Positions 1 to 64,000 of a stretch of 64,000 nucleotides of DNA are shown here, one piece after another. The position numbers were made by a program, and so were the translations under genes. The notes beneath the pieces were generated by a model that was not told the DNA's origin, ran no database searches, and was given only the letters and a program-made list of their open reading frames with translations. Source of the stretch: a virus. Where the stretch lies: IMG/VR virus record IMGVR_UViG_3300045978_000375, positions 570-64,569 of that record; one strand, given 5' to 3'. How positions within the stretch are numbered: the first letter of the stretch is position 1; each line of letters starts with the position of its first letter.

Positions 1-1
1 G

Positions 2-562
2 CAGGCTGCGCTCAAGGCTGGCGTGGTTGCGGGCTTCTGGTTGGAGGTTGTAGGGGTCCTCTCCGAAGCGGGCCGAGAACGGCTCCTAGCCCGCGAGCGG
101 CGTGTTTCCATCCAGCTCTCGCACAACGCGCTCGTCGGGGAGGACGACCCGAACGTGCTCGCCGACCTCTACATGCCCCTTCCGCTCGACGAAAAGCAGT
201 ACTCGGGCCTCACGGACGACGCCCTGAAAGCAGCCGACCCGCTCGACATCGCCTCGCTGTCGGCCGGCGCAGTCGCCTATCAAGAGCTTCAGCTGCTCTT
301 TCTGCCGGAGGACGCAGCCGTCTTTCGCGCCGCACTGGAACGCATCAAGAAGCGCGCCGGCAAGCTCGCCAAGGTCGATGTGCTGGTCGCGGCCCTTGCC
401 GACTTCGAGCGGCTCTTTGACGCCTGCGTGCGCGTGAAGGAGCAGCGGAACGTGCACAACACGGCCCTCGCCGTCCGGGTGATGGCAGAACTCGCGCTCG
501 AGCGCCTCGAGGAGCTCGCAGGGTCGGAGGAGCCGGCTCAAGGTCAGGTTGAGGGTTCGTGA
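2..562 (+). CDS. hypothetical phage protein (5' end probably outside window)
   Basis: Frame open from the window edge to TGA 560-562. GC-rich third positions. Stop overlaps the GTG of the next gene (GTGA). Confidence 0.5.
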   Translation, partial: QAALKAGVVAGFWLEVVGVLSEAGRERLLARERRVSIQLSHNALVGEDDPNVLADLYMPLPLDEKQYSGLTDDALKAADPLDIASLSAGAVAYQELQLLFLPEDAAVFRAALERIKKRAGKLAKVDVLVAALADFERLFDACVRVKEQRNVHNTALAVRVMAELALERLEELAGSEEPAQGQVEGS

Positions 563-1134
563 GCGAGCCGGAGAAGAAAACCCCCGAGGAGCGCTTCAAA
601 GAGCGCCTGGCGGCGCTCGGCGGTGGCGACGTCTCGAAGCAGGACGAGCTCGGTCGCACCATCTACGACCAGCGGATCGACTTCCTGATGGAGCTCATGG
701 ACACGGGCCGGTGGCTCCCGGGCGTCACCGAGCGCGTCATCGCGACCGGCTGGAACTGCTCGCGCCCGCATGTCCGGAGGATGGCGGCCGAGGCGAGCCG
801 CGCCATCAAGCGGCGGCTGCACGAGGACCCGAAGGCGCTCGCGGACGCCCGGGCGGCCTGCATCTTCACGTTCATGCGGCTCGCCTACAAGGCCGAGCAG
901 CTCGGCGATGCTCAAGGGCTTCGCGAAGCGAGGGAGAGCACGCTCGAGTACGCGCGTTTCATGGGCATCGCGCCGAAGCCCCAGCTCGAGCTCAGCGATG
1001 CCGATCCGTTTGCCGGCTGGAGCACCGAGGACAAGGAGCGGTTCGCTTCGACTGGTGAGCGCCCGTCGAGGAAGGTCCGGCGCGTGCTTGCTGCGGCCAT
1101 CGCTGAGGGCGTCGCCGGACCGAATGACGAATGA
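559..1134 (+). CDS. putative terminase small subunit
   Basis: 191 aa, GTG start coupled to the upstream stop, ATGA-coupled to the large terminase. Call is positional only. Confidence 0.5.
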   Translation: MSEPEKKTPEERFKERLAALGGGDVSKQDELGRTIYDQRIDFLMELMDTGRWLPGVTERVIATGWNCSRPHVRRMAAEASRAIKRRLHEDPKALADARAACIFTFMRLAYKAEQLGDAQGLREARESTLEYARFMGIAPKPQLELSDADPFAGWSTEDKERFASTGERPSRKVRRVLAAAIAEGVAGPNDE

Positions 1135-2633
1135 GCGCGGAGCTCGAGCTTCGGGCGCGCGCCCGACTTGCCGCCGAGTGGGACCGGGCGGCTACCGACG
1201 TCGCCGGGTTCATCCCGCTCGCCACTCCTGACTACTCGCGCCCGGTCGAGCTCGCGCCCGTCACCGAGCTTCTGAACCGGTCGCTCCATGAGCCGGTCTT
1301 CGCCTGCCTGTCGCTCCCGCCGCGGCACAAGAAAACCGACACCATCCTACACGCCGCCGTCCATCGGCTGAAGTTCCAGCCAAAGGCCCGGATCGGCTAC
1401 TTCTCCTACTCGAGCGATTTCGCTCTGAAGAAGTCCAGGGCGGCACGGAGTATCGCCGTGCAGGTCGGTCTCAAGCCAGGCGGCTCGCGCTCGCAGGCCG
1501 CGAACGAGGACCTCGCCAACACGGTGCATTACTGGCAGACGAGCTCGGGGAGCTCGTGGCTCGCATCGGGCCGTGGCGGTGAGGCGATTGGCCATGGCTT
1601 GGACCTCGCCATCGTAGACGACCCGTTCTCGGGGCCCGTCGAGGCGAGAAGCGCCGCCGTGCGCGAAGCCGTTTGGGATTGGTTTCTCGGCTCGATCTTC
1701 CAGCGTCGAGAGCCCGGAGCCTCCATCTTCGTCGTGCACACGCGCTGGCACGAAGACGACCTCATTGGGCGGCTCATCGCGAGCGAGGGGAACTGGACCT
1801 ACATCAACCTCCCGGCCCTCGCGCTCGACAACGACCCGATCGGCAGGAAGCCGGGCGAGGCCCTCTGCCCGGAGCGCTACACGGCCGACGAGCTGAACCT
1901 CATTCGCCTGCAGATCGGCGAATATCTGTTTTGGGCGCAGTACCAGGGGCAGCCGCGTCCCGAGGGGGCGAAGCTCTTCCGCCCGCCGGCGCGCATCGAC
2001 GAGCTTCCCATCCTGCTCGGCTGGCGCGTCTTCATCGGCGTCGACCCCGCGGGCACGACGAAGACGAGCTCGGACAACACGGCCGTTGCGGTGATGGCTT
2101 TCCGGCGGGACCCGAAGGGGCTCCTCCACGCCATCGTGCTTCGCGTCTACTGCTTCCAGGCCGAGGTCCCGGACGTCACCGACTTCCTGCTCGCACTTCA
2201 GAAGCGCTGGGAAGGTGCGCCCCTCGTCATCGAAACCCAGGGCGGGCATGGCGCCGCGGTCGCACAGATGCTCCGCCGAATCGAACCGCGGCTCGTGCTC
2301 GCGACCGTGACGACGACCGAGGACAAGTTCACTCGCGCGCAGCCCGTGGCGGCCGGCTGGAACCAGGGCCGAGTGCTCGTCCCGACGCAGTCCACGCTGC
2401 ACTGGGACTCCGAGGAGGTTCAGGCGCTGCTGAAGAGGTGGGCGCGCTGGGACACGAGCTGGGTGAAGACCTATCTCGATGAGATGGGCAAGGTGACGGG
2501 CGTCGCCGATCCGGAGGACGACCAGATGGACGCGACCGCCCATTGTTGGAACTACGCCGAAACCGCCGTGCTCGACGCCACCGCGGAGCAGCCGAAGGGG
2601 ATGCGGCCGCGCCTCCTCGCACGCGGCTACTGA
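1131..2633 (+). CDS. terL: terminase large subunit
   Basis: 500 aa. Walker-B-like LDLAIVDDPF, the VVHTRWHEDDLIGRL motif typical of large-terminase ATPases, and a C-terminal nuclease-like region (FIGVDPAG...). Confidence 0.9.
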   Translation: MSAELELRARARLAAEWDRAATDVAGFIPLATPDYSRPVELAPVTELLNRSLHEPVFACLSLPPRHKKTDTILHAAVHRLKFQPKARIGYFSYSSDFALKKSRAARSIAVQVGLKPGGSRSQAANEDLANTVHYWQTSSGSSWLASGRGGEAIGHGLDLAIVDDPFSGPVEARSAAVREAVWDWFLGSIFQRREPGASIFVVHTRWHEDDLIGRLIASEGNWTYINLPALALDNDPIGRKPGEALCPERYTADELNLIRLQIGEYLFWAQYQGQPRPEGAKLFRPPARIDELPILLGWRVFIGVDPAGTTKTSSDNTAVAVMAFRRDPKGLLHAIVLRVYCFQAEVPDVTDFLLALQKRWEGAPLVIETQGGHGAAVAQMLRRIEPRLVLATVTTTEDKFTRAQPVAAGWNQGRVLVPTQSTLHWDSEEVQALLKRWARWDTSWVKTYLDEMGKVTGVADPEDDQMDATAHCWNYAETAVLDATAEQPKGMRPRLLARGY

Positions 2634-52352: not shown

Positions 52353-52702
52353 ATGACACCCGCCTCCTTTGCCCCGCCGACGTCTGCGAGCGCTTCGGAT
52401 GCTCGCTGCGAAAGGCACTCAAGATCATGCGCGAGGCCGGCGCGCGGAAGTCTGGCTCGATGGTCCGGCTCGAACCTGAGAAACTGGAGGCATGGTGGCT
52501 AGCGCAAAAGGCGACCGCTTCGGCTTCTGGCTCAGGGGACGGACCTGGTACACGTGCGATCCCGTCACCCGCCGCGACGTCTCGACCCGCTGCCGGGACC
52601 TTGAAGCTGCTCGAAGGTGGCGTGCGGCCCGTGAGCGTATTGCAGCCGATCCGGCAATCGCAGTCCAGGCGCTCGCGACGTTCGGGGACGAGTGCAGGAT
52701 GA
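52349..52702 (+). CDS. excisionase-like HTH protein
   Basis: GTG overlapping the upstream TGA. LLCPADVCERFGCSLRKALKIMREAG...VRLEPEKLEAWW. The frame runs 210 nt into the integrase gene. Confidence 0.45.
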   Translation: MNDTRLLCPADVCERFGCSLRKALKIMREAGARKSGSMVRLEPEKLEAWWLAQKATASASGSGDGPGTRAIPSPAATSRPAAGTLKLLEGGVRPVSVLQPIRQSQSRRSRRSGTSAG

Positions 52703-53814
52703 TGCTCGACGCGCTCGAAGCCCTGGGCCGCCCGACGGCCGACTACGAGCACCGGCTCGGGCACTGGACCCGCGTGCTCGGCAACGACTGCCCGCTCTCC
52801 GATGTCGGCCCAGCCGCCGTCGACGCGTTTATCGCGCAGCGCAGCGCCGAGGGGGTTACGAACCACACCATCTCGAAGGAGCTGAAGGCGCTCGTCAGGA
52901 CGCTCCGGCAGGCGAAGCGTGCTGGCCGGTACGCGGGGGCACTTGAGGTCCTGCGCCCGCTCGGCTTCACCGCCGGGTATGTGCCTCGGACACGCACCCT
53001 GACGCTCGTGGAGCTCCAGGTCCTGCTCGGCGAGCTCGAGCCGGAGGAGCGAGCGTTCGTCGTGCTGCTCGTCGCCTTTGGCCTGCGCCGGGGCGAGGCT
53101 GCCCGTGTGCTTCCCTGCGACCTCGATACTGCCAACTGGGTGGCCCGGGTGCGTGGGACGAAGACGGCCGGGGCTCTCCGGGACCTGCCCATCCTCGAGC
53201 CCTTCCGGCCGCTCGTCGAGGCGGTCCTGCCCTACCTGCCGCTCGGCGCCTGGGTGCGCTCGACCCAGTACACGCGGGTCCTCCTCCGGGCGGCGGCGCG
53301 CGCCAAGCTCGAGCCGGTGACGGCGAACGACCTCCGCCGGACCCATGCAACGCTGCTCCGGAACTGGAAGGTGGACCGGGACACGGCCCGGACGCTGCTC
53401 GGGCACTCGCCGAAGTCGCAGCTGCTCGAGACCGTCTACGACAAGCCGAGACCCCACGAGCTCGCTGCTCGCGCCGGCGACCTCTCCGCCCTCACGGTCG
53501 CCCTGGCCCCGATTGCAGAATCACTGCAGTCGGCACCAAAAACATCCACTTCTCTCGGAGAAACCCGCGGCAGTGAACCGCCATGGGGGCCGACCTATAG
53601 CCCCGCCGGGTCTGCCTCGCCAGTGTGTTCGCGGGGTTACGGGCCAGGAACTGGCCGGGAAGAGCCGGACACCAGCGCAGAATCACTGCAGTCGGCTGGC
53701 CCCGCGGCGTGGGCGCTTGAGTTCGCCCGTGAGGCGCTGAACGTCGAGCCGAAGGCGACCATCTTCCTTGGCACCGGCGTGATCCTCCGCCGCAAGAGGA
53801 GGGACGTTGGCTAA
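52492..53814 (+). CDS. int: tyrosine integrase with long C-terminal extension
   Basis: ATG after GGAGG. AFGLRRGEA (R), GTKTAG (K), LRRTHATLL, LLGHS (H), ETVYDK (Y). About 110 further codons cross a repeat-bearing region. Confidence 0.8.
   Translation: MVASAKGDRFGFWLRGRTWYTCDPVTRRDVSTRCRDLEAARRWRAARERIAADPAIAVQALATFGDECRMMLDALEALGRPTADYEHRLGHWTRVLGNDCPLSDVGPAAVDAFIAQRSAEGVTNHTISKELKALVRTLRQAKRAGRYAGALEVLRPLGFTAGYVPRTRTLTLVELQVLLGELEPEERAFVVLLVAFGLRRGEAARVLPCDLDTANWVARVRGTKTAGALRDLPILEPFRPLVEAVLPYLPLGAWVRSTQYTRVLLRAAARAKLEPVTANDLRRTHATLLRNWKVDRDTARTLLGHSPKSQLLETVYDKPRPHELAARAGDLSALTVALAPIAESLQSAPKTSTSLGETRGSEPPWGPTYSPAGSASPVCSRGYGPGTGREEPDTSAESLQSAGPAAWALEFAREALNVEPKATIFLGTGVILRRKRRDVG
53515..53534 (+). 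repeat. 20-bp direct repeat copy 1 (gcagaatcactgcagtcggc)
   Basis: Exact second copy at 53677-53696. Contains the internal dyad TGCAG-aatca-CTGCA. Confidence 0.9.
53677..53696 (+). repeat. 20-bp direct repeat copy 2
   Basis: Identical to 53515-53534. 162 bp apart, both inside the int ORF tail. Confidence 0.9.
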
Positions 53815-59405: not shown

Positions 59406-60280
59406 TGGCCATGCCAGCGCTCCCGGCCAGTATCCATGAGCCTCCCCCGCTCGACGAGGTGATCCTGCGCCTTGCCCAAACGATGGCGGAGAGCATCGGC
59501 GAGCAGGTGGGGGACGTGCTCGCGCGTACGAAGAGCAAGTCGTGGATGCTCGGCCGCCTCCGCCGAGCCTACCAGGGCACGAAGACCGACGACGAGATCC
59601 GGGCCGCCATGGACCGGCTCGCCCGGCAGCACCACCGGTCTGCCCCTCGCACCGAGGTGACGGTGACCGAGCTCCCAAGAGAGCAACGCTGGCTGGAATA
59701 CTCCCAAAACCCCATCTGGCAGTCCCGCGTGCTCGAGCTCGGCGGGATCCTCGCCTACCCGATGACCGCCCGAGAGATCATCGACCGAGCGGCAGTCGTG
59801 CTCCGGTGGAACGAAAACCCGGTCAAGCAGTCGCTCGCGGCCTGCGAGATCTACGGCGAAGCCTGGTACGATCCGGCATTCAACTTCTGGCAGCGAACCC
59901 CTGAAAGGATCCTGATGGCGAACAGCAAGGGCAAAACGGTGCGGGTGCAGCGGCACCTGCCGGTCAAGGTAACGGACGAGGGCGAGCTCAAGCGGCGCCT
60001 GAGCAGGATCGACACCGAGGCCGAAGCGCTCGAAGCGAGCCTTGCTGAGGAGAGGCGCCGCGTCGCGGCCGAGCTCAAACGGCTCGTCGACAAGCGCGAG
60101 CGCACGCTCGAGAGCTGGAAGACTGGGGTCGAAACCCAGCTCGTCGAGTGCGAGGAACGCTGGTCCTACCAGGATCGCGAGGTCACGACCGTGCGCAAGG
60201 ACACGGGCGAGGTGGTCGAGCGGCGTGAGATGACGGCCGAGGAGCTTCAGCTCCGGATGCCCGAGCAGGCGACTACCTGA
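59405..60280 (+). CDS. hypothetical protein with C-terminal coiled coil
   Basis: ATG overlapping the upstream TGA. 291 aa. Last gene of the rightward operon. Confidence 0.45.
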   Translation: MAMPALPASIHEPPPLDEVILRLAQTMAESIGEQVGDVLARTKSKSWMLGRLRRAYQGTKTDDEIRAAMDRLARQHHRSAPRTEVTVTELPREQRWLEYSQNPIWQSRVLELGGILAYPMTAREIIDRAAVVLRWNENPVKQSLAACEIYGEAWYDPAFNFWQRTPERILMANSKGKTVRVQRHLPVKVTDEGELKRRLSRIDTEAEALEASLAEERRRVAAELKRLVDKRERTLESWKTGVETQLVECEERWSYQDREVTTVRKDTGEVVERREMTAEELQLRMPEQATT

Positions 60281-60286
60281 GAGTCG

Positions 60287-60661
60287 TTATGGAGACACCC
60301 GCGCTTCGAACTCAAACTCCGGTACGCTCACCCCGAGCTTCTCTTCCAGCCAAGTTGCAACCATTCGACGGTGGCACCAGTTCTTCACGTCGTCGAGGGG
60401 CGGCTTCTCCCAGCACATGAGGTGGGGTTCGGCGCCTCCGGCGAGCTTGTGCAGGCGCTCCCAGATGTCGGTGGGGTCGAGCAGCCTGAGCACCTCTTCG
60501 TTGTAGAGCTCGATGTAGCGCTCCCGCGAGACGCTGTTGAACCAGGGCCCGGGGGCGAGCGCCTTGAAGATCTTGTACCCAGGTGGGCACCCGCGGGGCG
60601 TGAACCTCGCGATCGAGATGCGGCCGGGGCCGCCGTAGGTTTTGAACGAGGCTGTTTTCAT
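60287..60661 (-). CDS. DUF488-like protein
   Basis: ATG 60661 after AAGGAGA. 124 aa. The pattern ISIARF.PRG...LAP...L...Y..E...LCWEKP....CHRR is typical of DUF488. Confidence 0.5.
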   Translation of the reverse strand: MKTASFKTYGGPGRISIARFTPRGCPPGYKIFKALAPGPWFNSVSRERYIELYNEEVLRLLDPTDIWERLHKLAGGAEPHLMCWEKPPLDDVKNWCHRRMVATWLEEKLGVSVPEFEFEARVSP

Positions 60662-60749
60662 GAGTTCTCCTTTCACCGGCTGGTTTGAGCCGGCGGTCCC
60701 GCGGGCGACGTGCCGAGTCGCCTGAATCGGGCGAACGCGGGTGTTTGGT

Positions 60750-61652
60750 CTAAGCCGCCGCCGAGCGGCCAACGGAGGCCGCCCTCAGCGACAGGCGCAG
60801 CTTCGACAGCTGCTTCTCGATGAGCTCGAGCTGGTCGGCAACCGTTTCGGCGCGCGACGGTGAGACGCGCGCGACGATCACGGCCTCGTTGTCCTGGAAG
60901 CCGTCGCACAGGACGGCGACCAGGCGCTCGATCTTCTTGTCGAGCGCGGTCAACACGGCCCGCTCCTCGTCGGTCGGACCCATGCTGGCGAACATCGACG
61001 CCTGCTCGACGGGCGCCTGAAGCGCCGCTGGCCTGCCCTGCTGCTCCTGGGACTGAAGCCACATCGTCGTCGCCCGCAGCTGCTGGTAGGTCGGGCACTT
61101 GCCGTCCCGGATGGCCTGCCAGAGTACCCGCTGGTACGCGTGCCCGAGGCGCGCCATCTCGAACGCCTGCGATGGCGCGAGTACCTGCTTGGCGAGCGCG
61201 TCCTGGTACTCGGGCGCGAGCCTGAGGAGCGCGACACGCTCCGTGATGCGGTGCGCCTGCTTGATGCCGAGCCGGCGCGCGAGCTCTTCGACCGAAACCC
61301 CTTGATCGAGCCTGCGCTGGAACGCGAGCGCCTCCTCGAGCGGCGTGATGTCCTTCCGCTGTAGGTTCTCGATGATGGCGCGGTCCGCGAGGTCCTGGTC
61401 GTCCGTCTCCTCGACGATGCAGGCGATGGTCGCCCACCCGAGTCGGAGGTGGGCGCGGTAGCGGCGCTCGCCGCAGACGATCTCGAACTCACCGCCATCG
61501 ACTGGGCGGACCCGTATGGGCGTGAGCAGGCCGTGCTCCTTGATGGTCGCGGCGAGCTCGTCGAGCGCCGTCTCGTCGAAGTGTTTCCGCGGCTGGTTCG
61601 GGTTCGGCCGAACGTTCGCGATGGGGAGGACGCGGTACCCAGTGCGAGCCAT
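60750..61652 (-). CDS. parB: ParB/Spo0J-family protein (orphan, no ParA nearby)
   Basis: VRPNPNQPRK, IVCGERRYRA (ParB box II), HTH VEELARRLGIKQAHRITERV. Confidence 0.8.
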   Translation of the reverse strand: MARTGYRVLPIANVRPNPNQPRKHFDETALDELAATIKEHGLLTPIRVRPVDGGEFEIVCGERRYRAHLRLGWATIACIVEETDDQDLADRAIIENLQRKDITPLEEALAFQRRLDQGVSVEELARRLGIKQAHRITERVALLRLAPEYQDALAKQVLAPSQAFEMARLGHAYQRVLWQAIRDGKCPTYQQLRATTMWLQSQEQQGRPAALQAPVEQASMFASMGPTDEERAVLTALDKKIERLVAVLCDGFQDNEAVIVARVSPSRAETVADQLELIEKQLSKLRLSLRAASVGRSAAA

Positions 61653-62101
61653 CAGAGCACCTCCGTCACGCTGGTCTCGCCGTCTCGCGCTAGGATCACG
61701 TGGTCGAGCAGCGCCACCCCAAGCTCTTCGCTGAGGGCCTTCAGCCGCTTCGTCATCACGACGTCCTCGTGGCTCGCCCTCGGGTCTCCCGACGGGTGGT
61801 TGTGCGCCATCACGAACGCCCGCGCGTTCGCTAGGATGGCTCCCCGGAACACGTCAGCGGCCAGAAGAGCAGCCCCGCAGCGACCGCCTCGGGCGAGCAC
61901 CTCGTAGCCGACCACGTGCCCCCGCCCGTCGAGGTAAGCGGCGTGCACTTCCTCGTGCGGCAGGAGCCGGATGCCCTCGAACAAGCTCACGGTCTGCCGG
62001 AACGTCTGCACCGACGGCTCCCGCACCATCAGCGGGCTCCCCTCCCGTACGAGCCGGCAGGTGTAGCGCGGCACCTCGTGGAGCAAGGCCTGCTGGTTCA
62101 T
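61652..62101 (-). CDS. radC: RadC-like JAB/MPN domain protein
   Basis: Start at MNQQALL (ATG 62101). AHNHPSGDPRAS JAMM-type motif. Stop overlaps the parB start. Confidence 0.75.
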   Translation of the reverse strand: MNQQALLHEVPRYTCRLVREGSPLMVREPSVQTFRQTVSLFEGIRLLPHEEVHAAYLDGRGHVVGYEVLARGGRCGAALLAADVFRGAILANARAFVMAHNHPSGDPRASHEDVVMTKRLKALSEELGVALLDHVILARDGETSVTEVL

Positions 62102-62490
62102 TTCCCCGCCTCCGGGTTCCGGTCCAGCCACTCGCGCGTGATGACGAGGTCGAATGGGATGCCACGGCTCTGCAACCACACCTCGCCCGCAGGGTGGCCC
62201 GCAAACGCGAGCTCCTGGTGGTGACGGATGCGGTTCACGCGCTCCTGCTCCTCGTTCGAGCGGAAGTAGAGGGTGCGCCACTCGAGCCATGACGCCTGGG
62301 ACGCGGCCGAGCGCAGCTTGTCCTCGAGCACCGCCAACCCGCCCTCCCAATTCGGGCCCGCCAGCTCCTGCACCTGCCGGAACTCGGCGAGCAGCCGGTC
62401 GAGCTTCTCCGAAAACTGCCGGCAGCGCTTCGCCACCTTCGGATTTCCGAGCGCTTTCAGCTCGGGCATGCGGTCTGCTACGTTTCTCAT
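62098..62490 (-). CDS. hypothetical helical protein, first gene of the minus-strand cassette
   Basis: 130 aa, ATGA-coupled to radC. Confidence 0.5.
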   Translation of the reverse strand: MRNVADRMPELKALGNPKVAKRCRQFSEKLDRLLAEFRQVQELAGPNWEGGLAVLEDKLRSAASQASWLEWRTLYFRSNEEQERVNRIRHHQELAFAGHPAGEVWLQSRGIPFDLVITREWLDRNPEAGK

Positions 62491-62556
62491 GTCGGTGTCC
62501 CTTTCACCGGCCGGCCCCGGGCAGCGCCAACTGCGCCGGGGCGACCTTCAAAACCT

Positions 62557-62616
62557 CCGAGCGGCTTCGCTCGGGCAACGGGTGATTCCGTTGTGGTGAG
62601 TTGAATCTAACTCACC
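62557..62616. promoter_or_regulatory. cluster of three perfect dyads in the divergent control region
   Basis: CCGAGCG-gctt-CGCTCGG (62557-62574), CAACGG-N6-CCGTTG (62576-62593), GGTGAGTT-gaatct-AACTCACC (62595-62616). Confidence 0.55.
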
Positions 62617-62868
62617 TACCCACCCGTGCAAGGGAAAAGCGAGCAACTCCGCCGATTTATCCTCCGCTCGGCAACCGTCACCCCGCTGGGTTACCAACGC
62701 GACCGGACAACGCGCGAGAACGCGCTCTTGCGGCGAAGGTGTCAAGCCATTTTTCTGTCAGCATGCTTTGGGCCATCAGGGTCACGCGCGAGCCCGGGCT
62801 TTAGGAGGATCTCGCACGCGCGCGCCTGTGCGCGTTCTGCGCTCCAAGCATCGGATCGATGCGCCGCC

Positions 62869-62918
62869 TGACCAGGGCGGAGAGCCTGCCTCGTAAGCAG
62901 GGGAGCGCTCCCTGGTCA
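62869..62918 (+). promoter_or_regulatory. structured leader enclosing the methyltransferase RBS and start codon
   Basis: TGACCAGGG (62869-62877) pairs with CCCTGGTCA (62910-62918, includes the A of the ATG). Inner stem CCTGC/GCAGG and 12-bp palindrome GGGAGCGCTCCC. Confidence 0.45.
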
Positions 62919-64000
62919 TGCTGTTCATTGGCGCGATACCGCGACCGGTGGTCGAGCAAGCCCTGAAGGTCGTGGACCTCAGCGGGGTGGAGGACGTGTT
63001 CGTTTGCTGCTCGGGTTCCTTCCGGCTCGAGCAGGCGCTCGCGGCGCGCTTCAAGGACGTGCGGGTCCATTCGAACGACGTCTCGCTGCTCTCGACGGCG
63101 CTCGGGCGGTACGCAACCGGCAACCCGCTCGCTTGGCAGTTCCATGGCAGGCTCGAGTTTCTCGAGCGCTTCGGTCGGCACGACCCGCTCGAGCGCCTCG
63201 CGGCCCTCGCGGTCGCGGTCCGGTGCGGGCACTTCGCTGGTAAAAACGCCTTCGCGCGCTCGCACTTTGCCCACTACGAGGCGAACGCCGACGACTACGT
63301 GGCCGGCCAGAAGGCGAAGCTCTCGAGCTACCTCGCCAGGCTCAGGCTCGCGAGTTTTACGGCCCGGGACTTCCGTGAGCACGCGCGGGCCGCCGTCGCT
63401 GCTGGGGCCTGGGTGTTCGCCTGGCCGCCGACCTACAAGGGCGGCTACGAGCAGCTCTTCCGGCTCATCCGCGAGAACACGAGCTGGGAGGAGCCCACCT
63501 ACGACGTCTTCGACCCGAAGTCGCTGCCGGGCTGGCTCGATGAGCTCGAGCAGGTCGAGGCGCGCTTCGTGGTCTGCGCCGATCATGAGCTCGAGGGCCA
63601 TCGGGCTGCCGCGATGTACGCGCCGGGGCGGGCTCGGCGCATCTGGCTCTACACGTCATCCGGCAGGAGCGCCTCGCTTCGCCGCGAGCAGGCGAAACGC
63701 GAGCCATTCCGCTACGAGCCGGTCGATGCGACCTCGCTCGGCCCGACAGCGGACGTCCGGCTCGTGCAGGTCACGGGGCCGCGGATGAACTTCCTGAAGG
63801 ATCACTACCTCGCGCCTGGTCTCGAGCATTCGGACGGCGACATGCGTTTCGTCGTATTCGTGAGCGGCAAAGTTCGCGGGCGGCTTCATCTACCGAAAAG
63901 ACGCGCGCCGGGACGACGAGATTTACCTGATCTGCGACTTCTCGGTTTCGCGCGACCGACGCCTCTCGAAGCTCGTCGCCATGCTGGCGACCGGAGAGGA
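62918..64000 (+). CDS. N6-adenine DNA methyltransferase-like gene with an apparent frame break near 63869-63881; 3' end outside window
   Basis: Not in the ORF track because there is no stop before the window end. FVCCSGSFRLE (motif I-like) and AWPPTYKGGYEQLF (DPPY-type motif IV). High-GC3 frame changes by +1 after about 63870. Confidence 0.5.
   Translation, partial: MLFIGAIPRPVVEQALKVVDLSGVEDVFVCCSGSFRLEQALAARFKDVRVHSNDVSLLSTALGRYATGNPLAWQFHGRLEFLERFGRHDPLERLAALAVAVRCGHFAGKNAFARSHFAHYEANADDYVAGQKAKLSSYLARLRLASFTARDFREHARAAVAAGAWVFAWPPTYKGGYEQLFRLIRENTSWEEPTYDVFDPKSLPGWLDELEQVEARFVVCADHELEGHRAAAMYAPGRARRIWLYTSSGRSASLRREQAKREPFRYEPVDATSLGPTADVRLVQVTGPRMNFLKDHYLAPGLEHSDGDMRFVVFVSGKVRGRLHLPKRRAPGRRDLPDLRLLGFARPTPLEARRHAGDRRG

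Follow-up and report, generated by a model that had tools for sequence, protein, structure and literature searches.

Among the closest described relatives of the locus reported here are three Pfam families found in phages and prophages: PF22555 (DAM-like-phage1, 'phage DNA adenine methylase-like domain 1'), PF22559 (GNAT-phage-like), and PF22751 (DUF488-N3a). All three probably derive from a computational survey that Burroughs and Aravind devoted to the rhodanese-phosphatase superfamily in 2023, in which DNA-end processing is reportedly predicted for some DUF488-clade enzymes of virus-host conflict systems. We have analyzed a locus of this kind in IMG/VR record IMGVR_UViG_3300045978_000375. 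The stretch under study, called the window below, comprises the last 64,000 nt of a 64,662-nt JGI contig and belongs to a temperate tailed phage. The locus shares with the three families their domains, a fusion architecture and the phage or prophage setting; since these component families are already in Pfam, the module is not new as a kind. The window module is a copy of a computationally recognised kind that carries extra accessories and a broken enzyme gene: genes for a RadC-like protein, for a ParB protein with a helix-turn-helix domain (ParB-HTH) and for a private 130-aa protein lie between the DUF488 gene and the fusion gene, and the latter is frameshifted. As its key gene is disrupted, this copy is of lower value than the module in general. 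We favour, with somewhat better than even confidence, the explanation that it is a ParB-assisted phage DNA-modification module, probably acting on adenine and expressed together with packaging.

DNA hypermodification is a main route by which phages escape restriction and CRISPR, and it is a source of new enzymology and tools. The Mom protein of phage Mu is a GNAT-fold enzyme that makes N6-carbamoylmethyl-adenine in DNA. Mom resembles the enzyme described here in that a phage uses the GNAT fold for DNA modification, and its structure matches a model of our protein family. It differs in being a single domain without a Dam-like domain or a ParB partner and in having no detectable sequence similarity, and many ordinary GNATs match the model equally well or better. 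A role for ParB folds in such chemistry has a precedent in a subclass of phage thymine dioxygenases, which need an adjoining ParB homologue without a DNA-binding domain to act on double-stranded DNA (PMC13229309). There, as here, the enzyme (5mYOX) is encoded beside a small ParB homologue that has no obvious DNA-binding domain; unlike the present fusion of a methyltransferase fold with a GNAT domain, it is an iron/2-oxoglutarate (Fe/2OG) dioxygenase with another target base, and ParB dependence of the fusion is presumed. The strict pairing of enzyme and ParB-like protein in the present module would, after the dioxygenases, add another example of a ParB fold that licenses an enzyme of DNA modification, a principle shown experimentally only in 2026. 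An archaeal ParB-CTPase domain fused to a DUF488-HTH protein binds CTP (bioRxiv 10.1101/2025.10.10.680097). The ParB-methyltransferase fusions and orphan phage ParB-CTPase-fold proteins of the same report also place a ParB fold with a DNA-modifying enzyme on mobile elements that lack ParA, as in the window; they differ from the window in that here the ParB-like protein, the DUF488 protein and the enzyme are products of separate genes, and two different ParB-type proteins are present.

The fusion gene lies on the plus strand at the end of the window. Its first 318 codons (62918..63871) encode a Dam-like domain of the class-I methyltransferase fold, which matches PF22555 with an E value of 3.5e-55 (187.6 bits against a cut-off of 27). 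The GNAT-like domain begins at 63872 in the +1 frame, runs to 64000 and continues for about 220 nt past the window end; the 45 residues inside the window match PF22559 at 1.4e-7 (31.9 bits). Both domains are joined in a single polypeptide of 425-480 aa in nearly all of the 120 best homologues, and tblastn with a repaired fusion sequence gives an unbroken alignment over 98% of the query in cultured phages. Residues that are invariant in the family (CSG, ND, P171, Y177 and E178) are kept in the Dam-like domain of the window as CSG, ND and PPTYKGGYE. The invariants of the GNAT part (D, KL and SMKYR) are kept too, when the two frames are read from the window and from L001, a 122-kb contig that holds an integrated form of the phage. 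Among the PHROGs, phrog_7858 (function unknown) matches the fusion over its full length, and the C-terminus of phrog_2443 (amidoligase) matches it as well. No NCBIfam or PADLOC model matches the fusion, the DUF488 protein, the 130-aa protein or the ParB/Srx-like partner discussed below.

The SAM (S-adenosylmethionine)-binding motifs I-III (CSG, ND and DF) are invariant throughout the family. Motif IV reads [F/W]PPTY..GGYE, with WPPTY in the window and FPPTY in the family consensus; the first polar residue and the fourth, aromatic residue of the (D/N/S)PP(Y/F/W) signature are both missing, and for this reason the fusion is not a canonical N6-adenine methyltransferase. A first-pass annotation of the window, made from the letters alone, had taken FVCCSGSF and WPPTY as landmarks of N6-adenine methyltransferases. 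Both motifs are indeed present, but the assignment to the canonical class does not stand and the fused GNAT domain had gone unnoticed. We consider it quite unlikely that the gene encodes a plain orphan N6-adenine methyltransferase that evades restriction, with the GNAT domain, the ParB-like protein and the DUF488 protein as incidental company. That view can call on the Dam-like fold with its conserved motifs I-III, on one SEA-PHAGES record in which the gene is annotated as a DNA methyltransferase, and on the UniRef name 'putative antirestriction adenine methyltransferase' borne by Klebsiella, Salmonella and Rhodopila members; this name, however, is automatic, was not found in the literature searched and has no NCBIfam model match behind it. 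It also leaves motif IV unaccounted for, as well as a GNAT domain that has invariant residues of its own and is fused in nearly all of the top homologues, a ParB-like partner in 80 of 80 IMG/VR loci, and a variant that has gained an amidoligase domain.

An AlphaFold2 model was obtained for P0122, the closest intact homologue (63% identical, from a metagenome-assembled genome of Polyangiaceae), with a predicted local distance difference test score (pLDDT) of 92.9 and a predicted template modelling score (pTM) of 0.83. Its N-terminal part matches class-I methyltransferases in the PDB: AviRa (8.6e-6), Mcbe1 and E. coli Dam (1.8e-3). Its C-terminal part matches many GNATs, among them phage Mu Mom (8bv8; E value 1.1e-3, template modelling (TM) score 0.51). 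By a wide margin, the top match among predicted viral structures, BFVD A0A8S5SJK3, is a 695-aa 'amidoligase enzyme' joined to both domains (E value 3.6e-22, TMq 0.64); further BFVD matches are to Mom (2.8e-4) and to D12-class adenine methylases (about 1e-4 to 1e-3). The likeness to the Dam/D12 class thus lies in the class-I fold and a Dam-like order of motifs, with Foldseek E values of about 1e-3 to 1e-4 for E. coli Dam and phage D12; the differences are the [F/W]PPTY in place of DPPY, the lack of a sequence match and the fused GNAT domain. The Dam-like domain was matched by PF22555 and not by PF02086. An amidoligase joined to the Dam-like and GNAT-like domains hints at amide-bond chemistry.

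Comparison with three other contigs supplies 442 nt that join the end of the window to its start, and the phage genome is therefore a circle of 64,442 bp. Across this junction the fusion gene is followed by a gene for a ParB/Srx-like partner protein, of which the 3' two-thirds lie in the window (1..562, plus strand) and the 5' end in the 442 nt outside it; the terminase genes come next. The GNAT-like domain, the +1 frame break, the running of the fusion gene off the window, and the partner and terminases at 1-2633 had all been missed by the first-pass annotation. The partner protein matches phrog_7405 at 8.6e-44. When it was aligned by hhalign with the ParB-HTH protein of the window, its SGNHRV fell on CGERRY of ParB box II (E value 6.5e-5); the five top matches of its profile in the PDB are all ParB N-domains (E values 0.01-0.06); and its 1,794 relatives include many at 43-47% identity that have PF02195 together with NCBI names of the type 'ParB/Srx family N-terminal domain-containing protein'. 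On these three grounds the partner is assigned to the ParB/Srx superfamily. The protein itself has no Pfam match at 0.01 and no detectable helix-turn-helix. The called ATG probably makes the gene too short: a GTG in the same frame lies 177 nt before it, and translation from there (L001 6649-7497) yields 282 aa where 223 were called and brings in the first strand of the ParB fold, LVTRIVRGDLRSLRLLEKNAR. Next on the plus strand is a 191-aa gene (559..1134) with no family match in our searches, which we place in the small-terminase slot by position only; phage FP_Brigit has an annotated small terminase at this place. The large terminase subunit (500 aa; 1131..2633, plus strand) is identified by a weak Terminase_6C match together with its position.

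The association of these genes was examined in loci gathered in three ways, with the DUF488 gene as anchor in IMG/VR, with the fusion as anchor in IMG/VR, and with the fusion as anchor among genomes sampled at one per species; six-frame open reading frames (ORFs) of the loci were scored with profiles built in this analysis. Around the DUF488 anchor (57 loci, 51 of them with enough upstream sequence) the fusion was found in 47 of 51 and the SGNHR partner in 46 of 51. Around the fusion anchor in IMG/VR, the SGNHR partner lies directly downstream in all 80 loci, the two ORFs usually overlapping. Where at least 2.5 kb of upstream sequence was available (53 loci), a DUF488 gene is present in 46, always on the opposite strand and in 28 cases within 330 bp, a ParB-HTH homologue in 25 and a RadC gene in 5. 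The sampling of one genome per species yielded 269 relatives in many phyla, so that the module is common; in the 77 loci that were kept, the partner is the next gene in 69, and the 69 loci with at least 2.5 kb upstream of the fusion contain DUF488 in 48 instances, ParB-HTH in 26 and RadC in 8. RadC genes, present in about 10% of loci, occur mostly alongside ParB-HTH, which itself is present in about 35-45%. The hosts include Alpha-, Beta- and Gammaproteobacteria, Myxococcota, Desulfobacterota, Planctomycetota, Chloroflexota, Acidobacteriota, Nitrospirota, Actinomycetota and Bacillota, and one metagenome-assembled genome of Methanobacterium.

The conserved core is thus the fusion gene with its ParB/Srx-like partner, usually accompanied by DUF488, while RadC, ParB-HTH and the 130-aa gene are optional. 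The first-pass annotation had treated the four minus-strand genes as the unit, and this the comparison does not bear out; its idea of a functional link between the cassette and the divergent methylase-like gene fared better, since DUF488-N3a and the fusion are neighbours in 87-92% of IMG/VR loci and the genes form one operon in a Syntrophus prophage. Two prophages of one Syntrophus genome (L210 and L215) contain the fusion, the partner, DUF6908, RadC, ParB-HTH and DUF488-N3a as contiguous, co-directional genes; those of L215 were each confirmed by Pfam. As RadC, ParB-HTH and DUF488 follow one another beside the fusion in the same order as in the window, the grouping of the four genes is not due to chance, and RadC and ParB-HTH belong to this one system as accessories that recur. 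Another such gene is DUF6908, which lies beside RadC or DUF488 (L215 8393-8806; L009 7591-8088). Other arrangements were seen as well. In L198-L222 (Desulfobacterota and others) DUF488 is co-directional and immediately upstream of the fusion, the order being changed and the linkage kept, and in L129-L134 and L169-L173 (Rickettsiales and other Alphaproteobacteria) the roughly 2 kb next to the fusion on its upstream side hold a divergent ORF of 570-750 aa with a match to the ParB profile.

Cultured phages that infect Mycobacterium, Gordonia and Faecalibacterium also have the module, as do Salmonella and Klebsiella prophages or plasmids. Faecalibacterium phage FP_Brigit has the order DUF488, fusion, 'ParB-like nuclease', small terminase and large terminase. 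Gordonia phage Sting has a DUF488-like gene, the fusion and the partner, and Mycobacterium phage Argie the fusion and the partner, with no DUF488 match within its 6-kb flanks. The fusion and partner are also present on a Salmonella plasmid and on Peribacillus plasmids, and for Streptomyces plasmids the annotation under the match covers the fusion alone. What had been a vague 'anti-defence island' is in this way recast as a defined system of three genes that can be tested in tractable hosts.

The position of the module was examined in the 65 IMG/VR loci in which the partner gene is followed by 3.5 kb of sequence or more. A TerL profile recognises a large terminase in 17 of these, and in 47 more the next sizeable gene is a large ORF; ten of the large ORFs were sampled across lineages and all ten proved to be large terminases, which fall into two Pfam types unrelated to each other, TerL_ATPase plus TerL_nuclease and Terminase_6N plus Terminase_6C. 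The module therefore heads the packaging operon whatever the terminase family, and this position points to late, packaging-linked expression. Exceptions are L215, in which a GpA-type terminase lies upstream, and the phages Argie and Sting, which have no adjacent annotated terminase. An early, first-entering location, as the first-pass annotation had it, is hard to reconcile with some 64 of 65 loci having a TerL match or a large ORF next, and the conjugative-element setting that it invoked gives way to a temperate tailed phage, in whose genome the cassette region sits between replication genes and the terminase operon.

Two other explanations bear on this position. The first regards the genes as accessories of packaging: the ParB/Srx-like protein, as nuclease or NTPase, and the DUF488 protein, through end processing, would serve terminase cutting or the protection of ends, and the fusion would mark or recognise only pac, without genome-wide modification. 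The location directly upstream of terminases of unrelated families in nearly all loci fits this, as does the DNA-end processing reportedly predicted for DUF488-clade enzymes. ParB/Srx domains have been reported as nicking nucleases or NTPases in several settings (PMC5512222). We nevertheless judge it unlikely, because the strict coupling is that of the enzyme with the ParB-like protein and not of the ParB-like protein with the terminase, because the GpA-type terminase of L215 is upstream instead of downstream, and because no annotated terminase adjoins the pair in Argie and Sting. The second, which seems to us very unlikely, is an early anti-defence island comparable to the leading regions of conjugative plasmids, each gene blocking one host defence independently. 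Such leading-region islands do contain the same types of genes (RadC, ParB-like and orphan methylase-like), genes of these types recur in invading elements and polyvalent proteins (PMC5512222), and the minus-strand cassette of the window has an inverted, moron-like orientation. They belong, however, to another type of element: the window phage is tailed and temperate and enters as double-stranded DNA, its fusion and partner head a late packaging operon beside the terminase, and the genes co-vary as one system and not as independent items; moreover no PADLOC match and no known anti-defence family was found.

In the window phage the fusion gene is interrupted by a 1-nt insertion on the plus strand that turns AAG into AAAG, with the extra A at 63869-63871 (site 63869..63872), so that the conserved frame passes into the +1 frame. 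Homologues read GK[L]AGGFIY at this point; the window has GGC AAA GTT CGC in the gene frame and AAG TTC GCG GGC GGC TTC in the +1 frame. The same break is present in two JGI and two Logan assemblies of the phage, which are 100% identical and represent one population, and it is genuine in the population sampled. AAA (22 of 192 lysine codons) and GTT (31 of 429 valine codons) are rare in this phage, whereas the repaired AAG and TTC are preferred codons. The GNAT domain is accordingly encoded but not in the same polypeptide as the Dam-like domain, and the 472-aa product proposed by gene callers is a wrong-frame read-through. Over its 115 aa, the GNAT frame taken from L001 shares 50-66% identity with intact homologues and is as conserved as these are among themselves (47-66%). 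Because the shifted frame shows no decay, either the mutation is recent or +1 slippage at AAA-G bypasses it; the module in the window phage is, in other words, either recently inactivated or reliant on +1 ribosomal slippage at that site. Programmed recoding at AAA-G was considered as the reason for the undecayed GNAT frame; it receives no comparative support, since other disrupted copies break elsewhere (L011 and L068 have an in-frame stop and L051 a frameshift, at different places) and the four assemblies amount to one population. A stop or a frameshift also interrupts the fusion copies of L180, L184, L189 and L195, the place differing between copies. Some of the disrupted copies are from MFD-labelled assemblies, so that some splits may be sequencing errors instead of real mutations.

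The gene content, the domain folds, the linkage, the position and the frame break have been shown above; the substrate, the chemistry, the timing and the protective role of the favoured DNA-modification module we infer as follows. That the fusion modifies phage DNA after replication is suggested by its Dam-like fold, by its constant association with a ParB fold and by the two experimental precedents cited above. Late in infection the fusion and its ParB-like partner would be made together with the terminase. The partner, translationally coupled to the enzyme, may open double-stranded DNA to it, as an activator or as an NTP-dependent clamp, in the way shown for the ParB-dependent thymine dioxygenases. 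The Dam-like domain would bind DNA and flip out a base, probably adenine, and the GNAT domain would add an amide-linked group, with or instead of methyl transfer; an amide-linked adduct is proposed because of the GNAT domain and of the amidoligase domain in some relatives. The DUF488 protein, with its predicted Cys/His/Arg active site, might carry out processing at the level of phosphate or sugar, possibly at DNA ends. Where they are present, ParB-HTH could provide site-specific loading and RadC, a metal hydrolase of the JAB type, an amidase or nuclease step. The marked DNA would then be packaged and resist restriction in the next host, and it is plausible that the module protects the DNA of its own phage. 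A more specific version, tentative and rather unlikely to hold in full, is that the mark is an undescribed one, an acyl or aminoacyl adenine adduct in amide linkage, set by the Dam-like base-flipping domain and the GNAT domain; that a ParB/Srx clamp licenses it on double-stranded DNA at packaging; that DUF488 and RadC process or edit it; and that +1 slippage at GGC-AAA-G sets the ratio of Dam-only product to full fusion.

Several observations weigh against the DNA-modification proposal. Since motif IV departs from (D/N/S)PP(Y/F/W), methyl transfer and even adenine as the target are uncertain, and the substrate of the GNAT domain could be a protein or a small molecule instead of DNA. The structural matches to Dam and Mom are modest (E values near 1e-3, TM scores near 0.5); by sequence, the profile of the Dam-like domain matched none of the PDB chains, and hhalign against E. 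coli Dam returned nothing. Searches of the PDB with the DUF488 protein, both by sequence and by fold, likewise gave no significant structural neighbour. The core families are so far recognised by computation only, and PHROGs lists all three as of unknown function. Phage 'moron' genes that have no relation to the module are typically found next to terminases too, and so are ParB-like nucleases with a possible packaging role. The loci behind the linkage counts are often related to each other, and the counts are not numbers of independent events. Lastly, the fusion gene is disrupted in the very phage from which the analysis started.

The remaining genes of the locus agree in number and arrangement with the first-pass inventory, in which four tightly packed minus-strand genes are divergent from the plus-strand gene at 62918; none of the five genes is missing. 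The orientation of the minus-strand cassette is opposite to that of the flanking genes, as in a moron insertion. Its first gene (62098..62490) encodes the lineage-specific 130-aa protein and runs 4 nt into the start of RadC; a single nucleotide (61652) is common to the RadC stop and the ParB-HTH start, and an 88-nt gap separates ParB-HTH from DUF488. Pfam, NCBIfam, PHROG and PADLOC gave no match for the 130-aa protein, and only five weak relatives were found among 1.8 billion (1.8e9) representative proteins, the sole one with recoverable context being on an uninformative 1.2-kb contig. It is not similar to DUF6908, found at the corresponding place in L215, or to the L009 gene of equivalent position. 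The RadC-like JAB/JAMM protein (149 aa; 61652..62101, minus strand), correctly named in the earlier annotation, is an accessory that matches PF04002 at 2e-26 (92.7 bits) and phrog_10276 at 1.6e-28 and has an intact HxHx7Sx2D metal motif, HNHPSGDPRASHED.

The last gene of the minus-strand unit (60287..60661) encodes a DUF488-N3a protein of 124 aa, a predicted Cys/His/Arg enzyme of the rhodanese-phosphatase-like DUF488 clade. Its own score against PF22751 (18.8 bits) is below the Pfam cut-off of 27, so that the earlier DUF488 call has to be taken with care. Among 327 homologues, however, many at 50-66% identity have PF22751 or PF04343 on record, and the C-x-E and CHR active-site residues of the 'active' subclade (C83, E85 and C96-H97-R98), which are invariant in 38 sequences, are all kept. 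The product matches phrog_2450 at 2.2e-17, and the L215 orthologue reaches 41.3 bits against PF22751. In an AlphaFold2 model of the window protein (pLDDT 89.7) the best PDB match has an E value of 0.29, and cysteine phosphatases are found among the weak matches only.

The other accessory, ParB-HTH (300 aa; 60750..61652, minus strand), has an N-terminal CTPase-type domain and a helix-turn-helix. It matches ParB_N at 1.7e-29, HTH_ParB at 3.8e-10 and TIGR00180 at 6.4e-39, and GERRYRA and ENLQR are both present, as expected from its earlier description as an orphan ParB with GERRYRA and a helix-turn-helix. Such a complete set of CTPase boxes, with the helix-turn-helix and the TIGR00180 match, would suit a protein of partition or plasmid maintenance. 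We reject a partition role, which is highly improbable here, as neither ParA nor parS was found and the phage integrates, as seen from its integrase gene and from a prophage junction in L001. The ParA Walker A motif KGGxGK[ST] is in no ORF of the window, and ParA is not among the called genes of L001-L004. The parS sequence TGTTNCACGTGAAACA has no match within 3 mismatches in the window, a search that a non-canonical single site could escape, and no repeated palindrome occurs in the 64 kb. The first-pass annotation had also reported neither ParA nor a recognisable parS and had doubted partition, and on this point the two analyses agree.

Between the two transcription units is a divergent intergenic region of 427 bp (62491..62917) that presumably holds promoters and operators; no sigma-70-like promoter match was found within it. 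It had been described as a control region of about 420 bp dense in dyads. The length is right and there is a mild excess of dyads over 300 dinucleotide shuffles, but 'dense' is poorly supported, the region ranking only 11th in dyad density among 149 equal-sized tiles of the window. With 6-nt arms there are 11 dyads against 4.1 +/- 2.6 in shuffled sequence (11 being reached in 6 of the 300 shuffles), with 7-nt arms 4 against 1.1 (20 of 300), and with 8-nt arms 1 against 0.3 (57 of 300). The single perfect 8-nt dyad is GGTGAGTT-N6-AACTCACC at 62595-62616.

The window has a G+C content of 67% throughout. It is a permuted piece of the circular genome, and the 64,662-nt source contig has a terminal overlap of about 220 nt. 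The region 60000-64000 has no blastn match among 50,697 phage records. In L001, no tRNA gene was found at the prophage junction. Identity between L001 and the window ends at about 53568 (about 18084 in L001), inside the integrase ORF (52492-53814) and some 246 nt before its stop; attP therefore appears to lie within int, as it does in myxophage Mx8.

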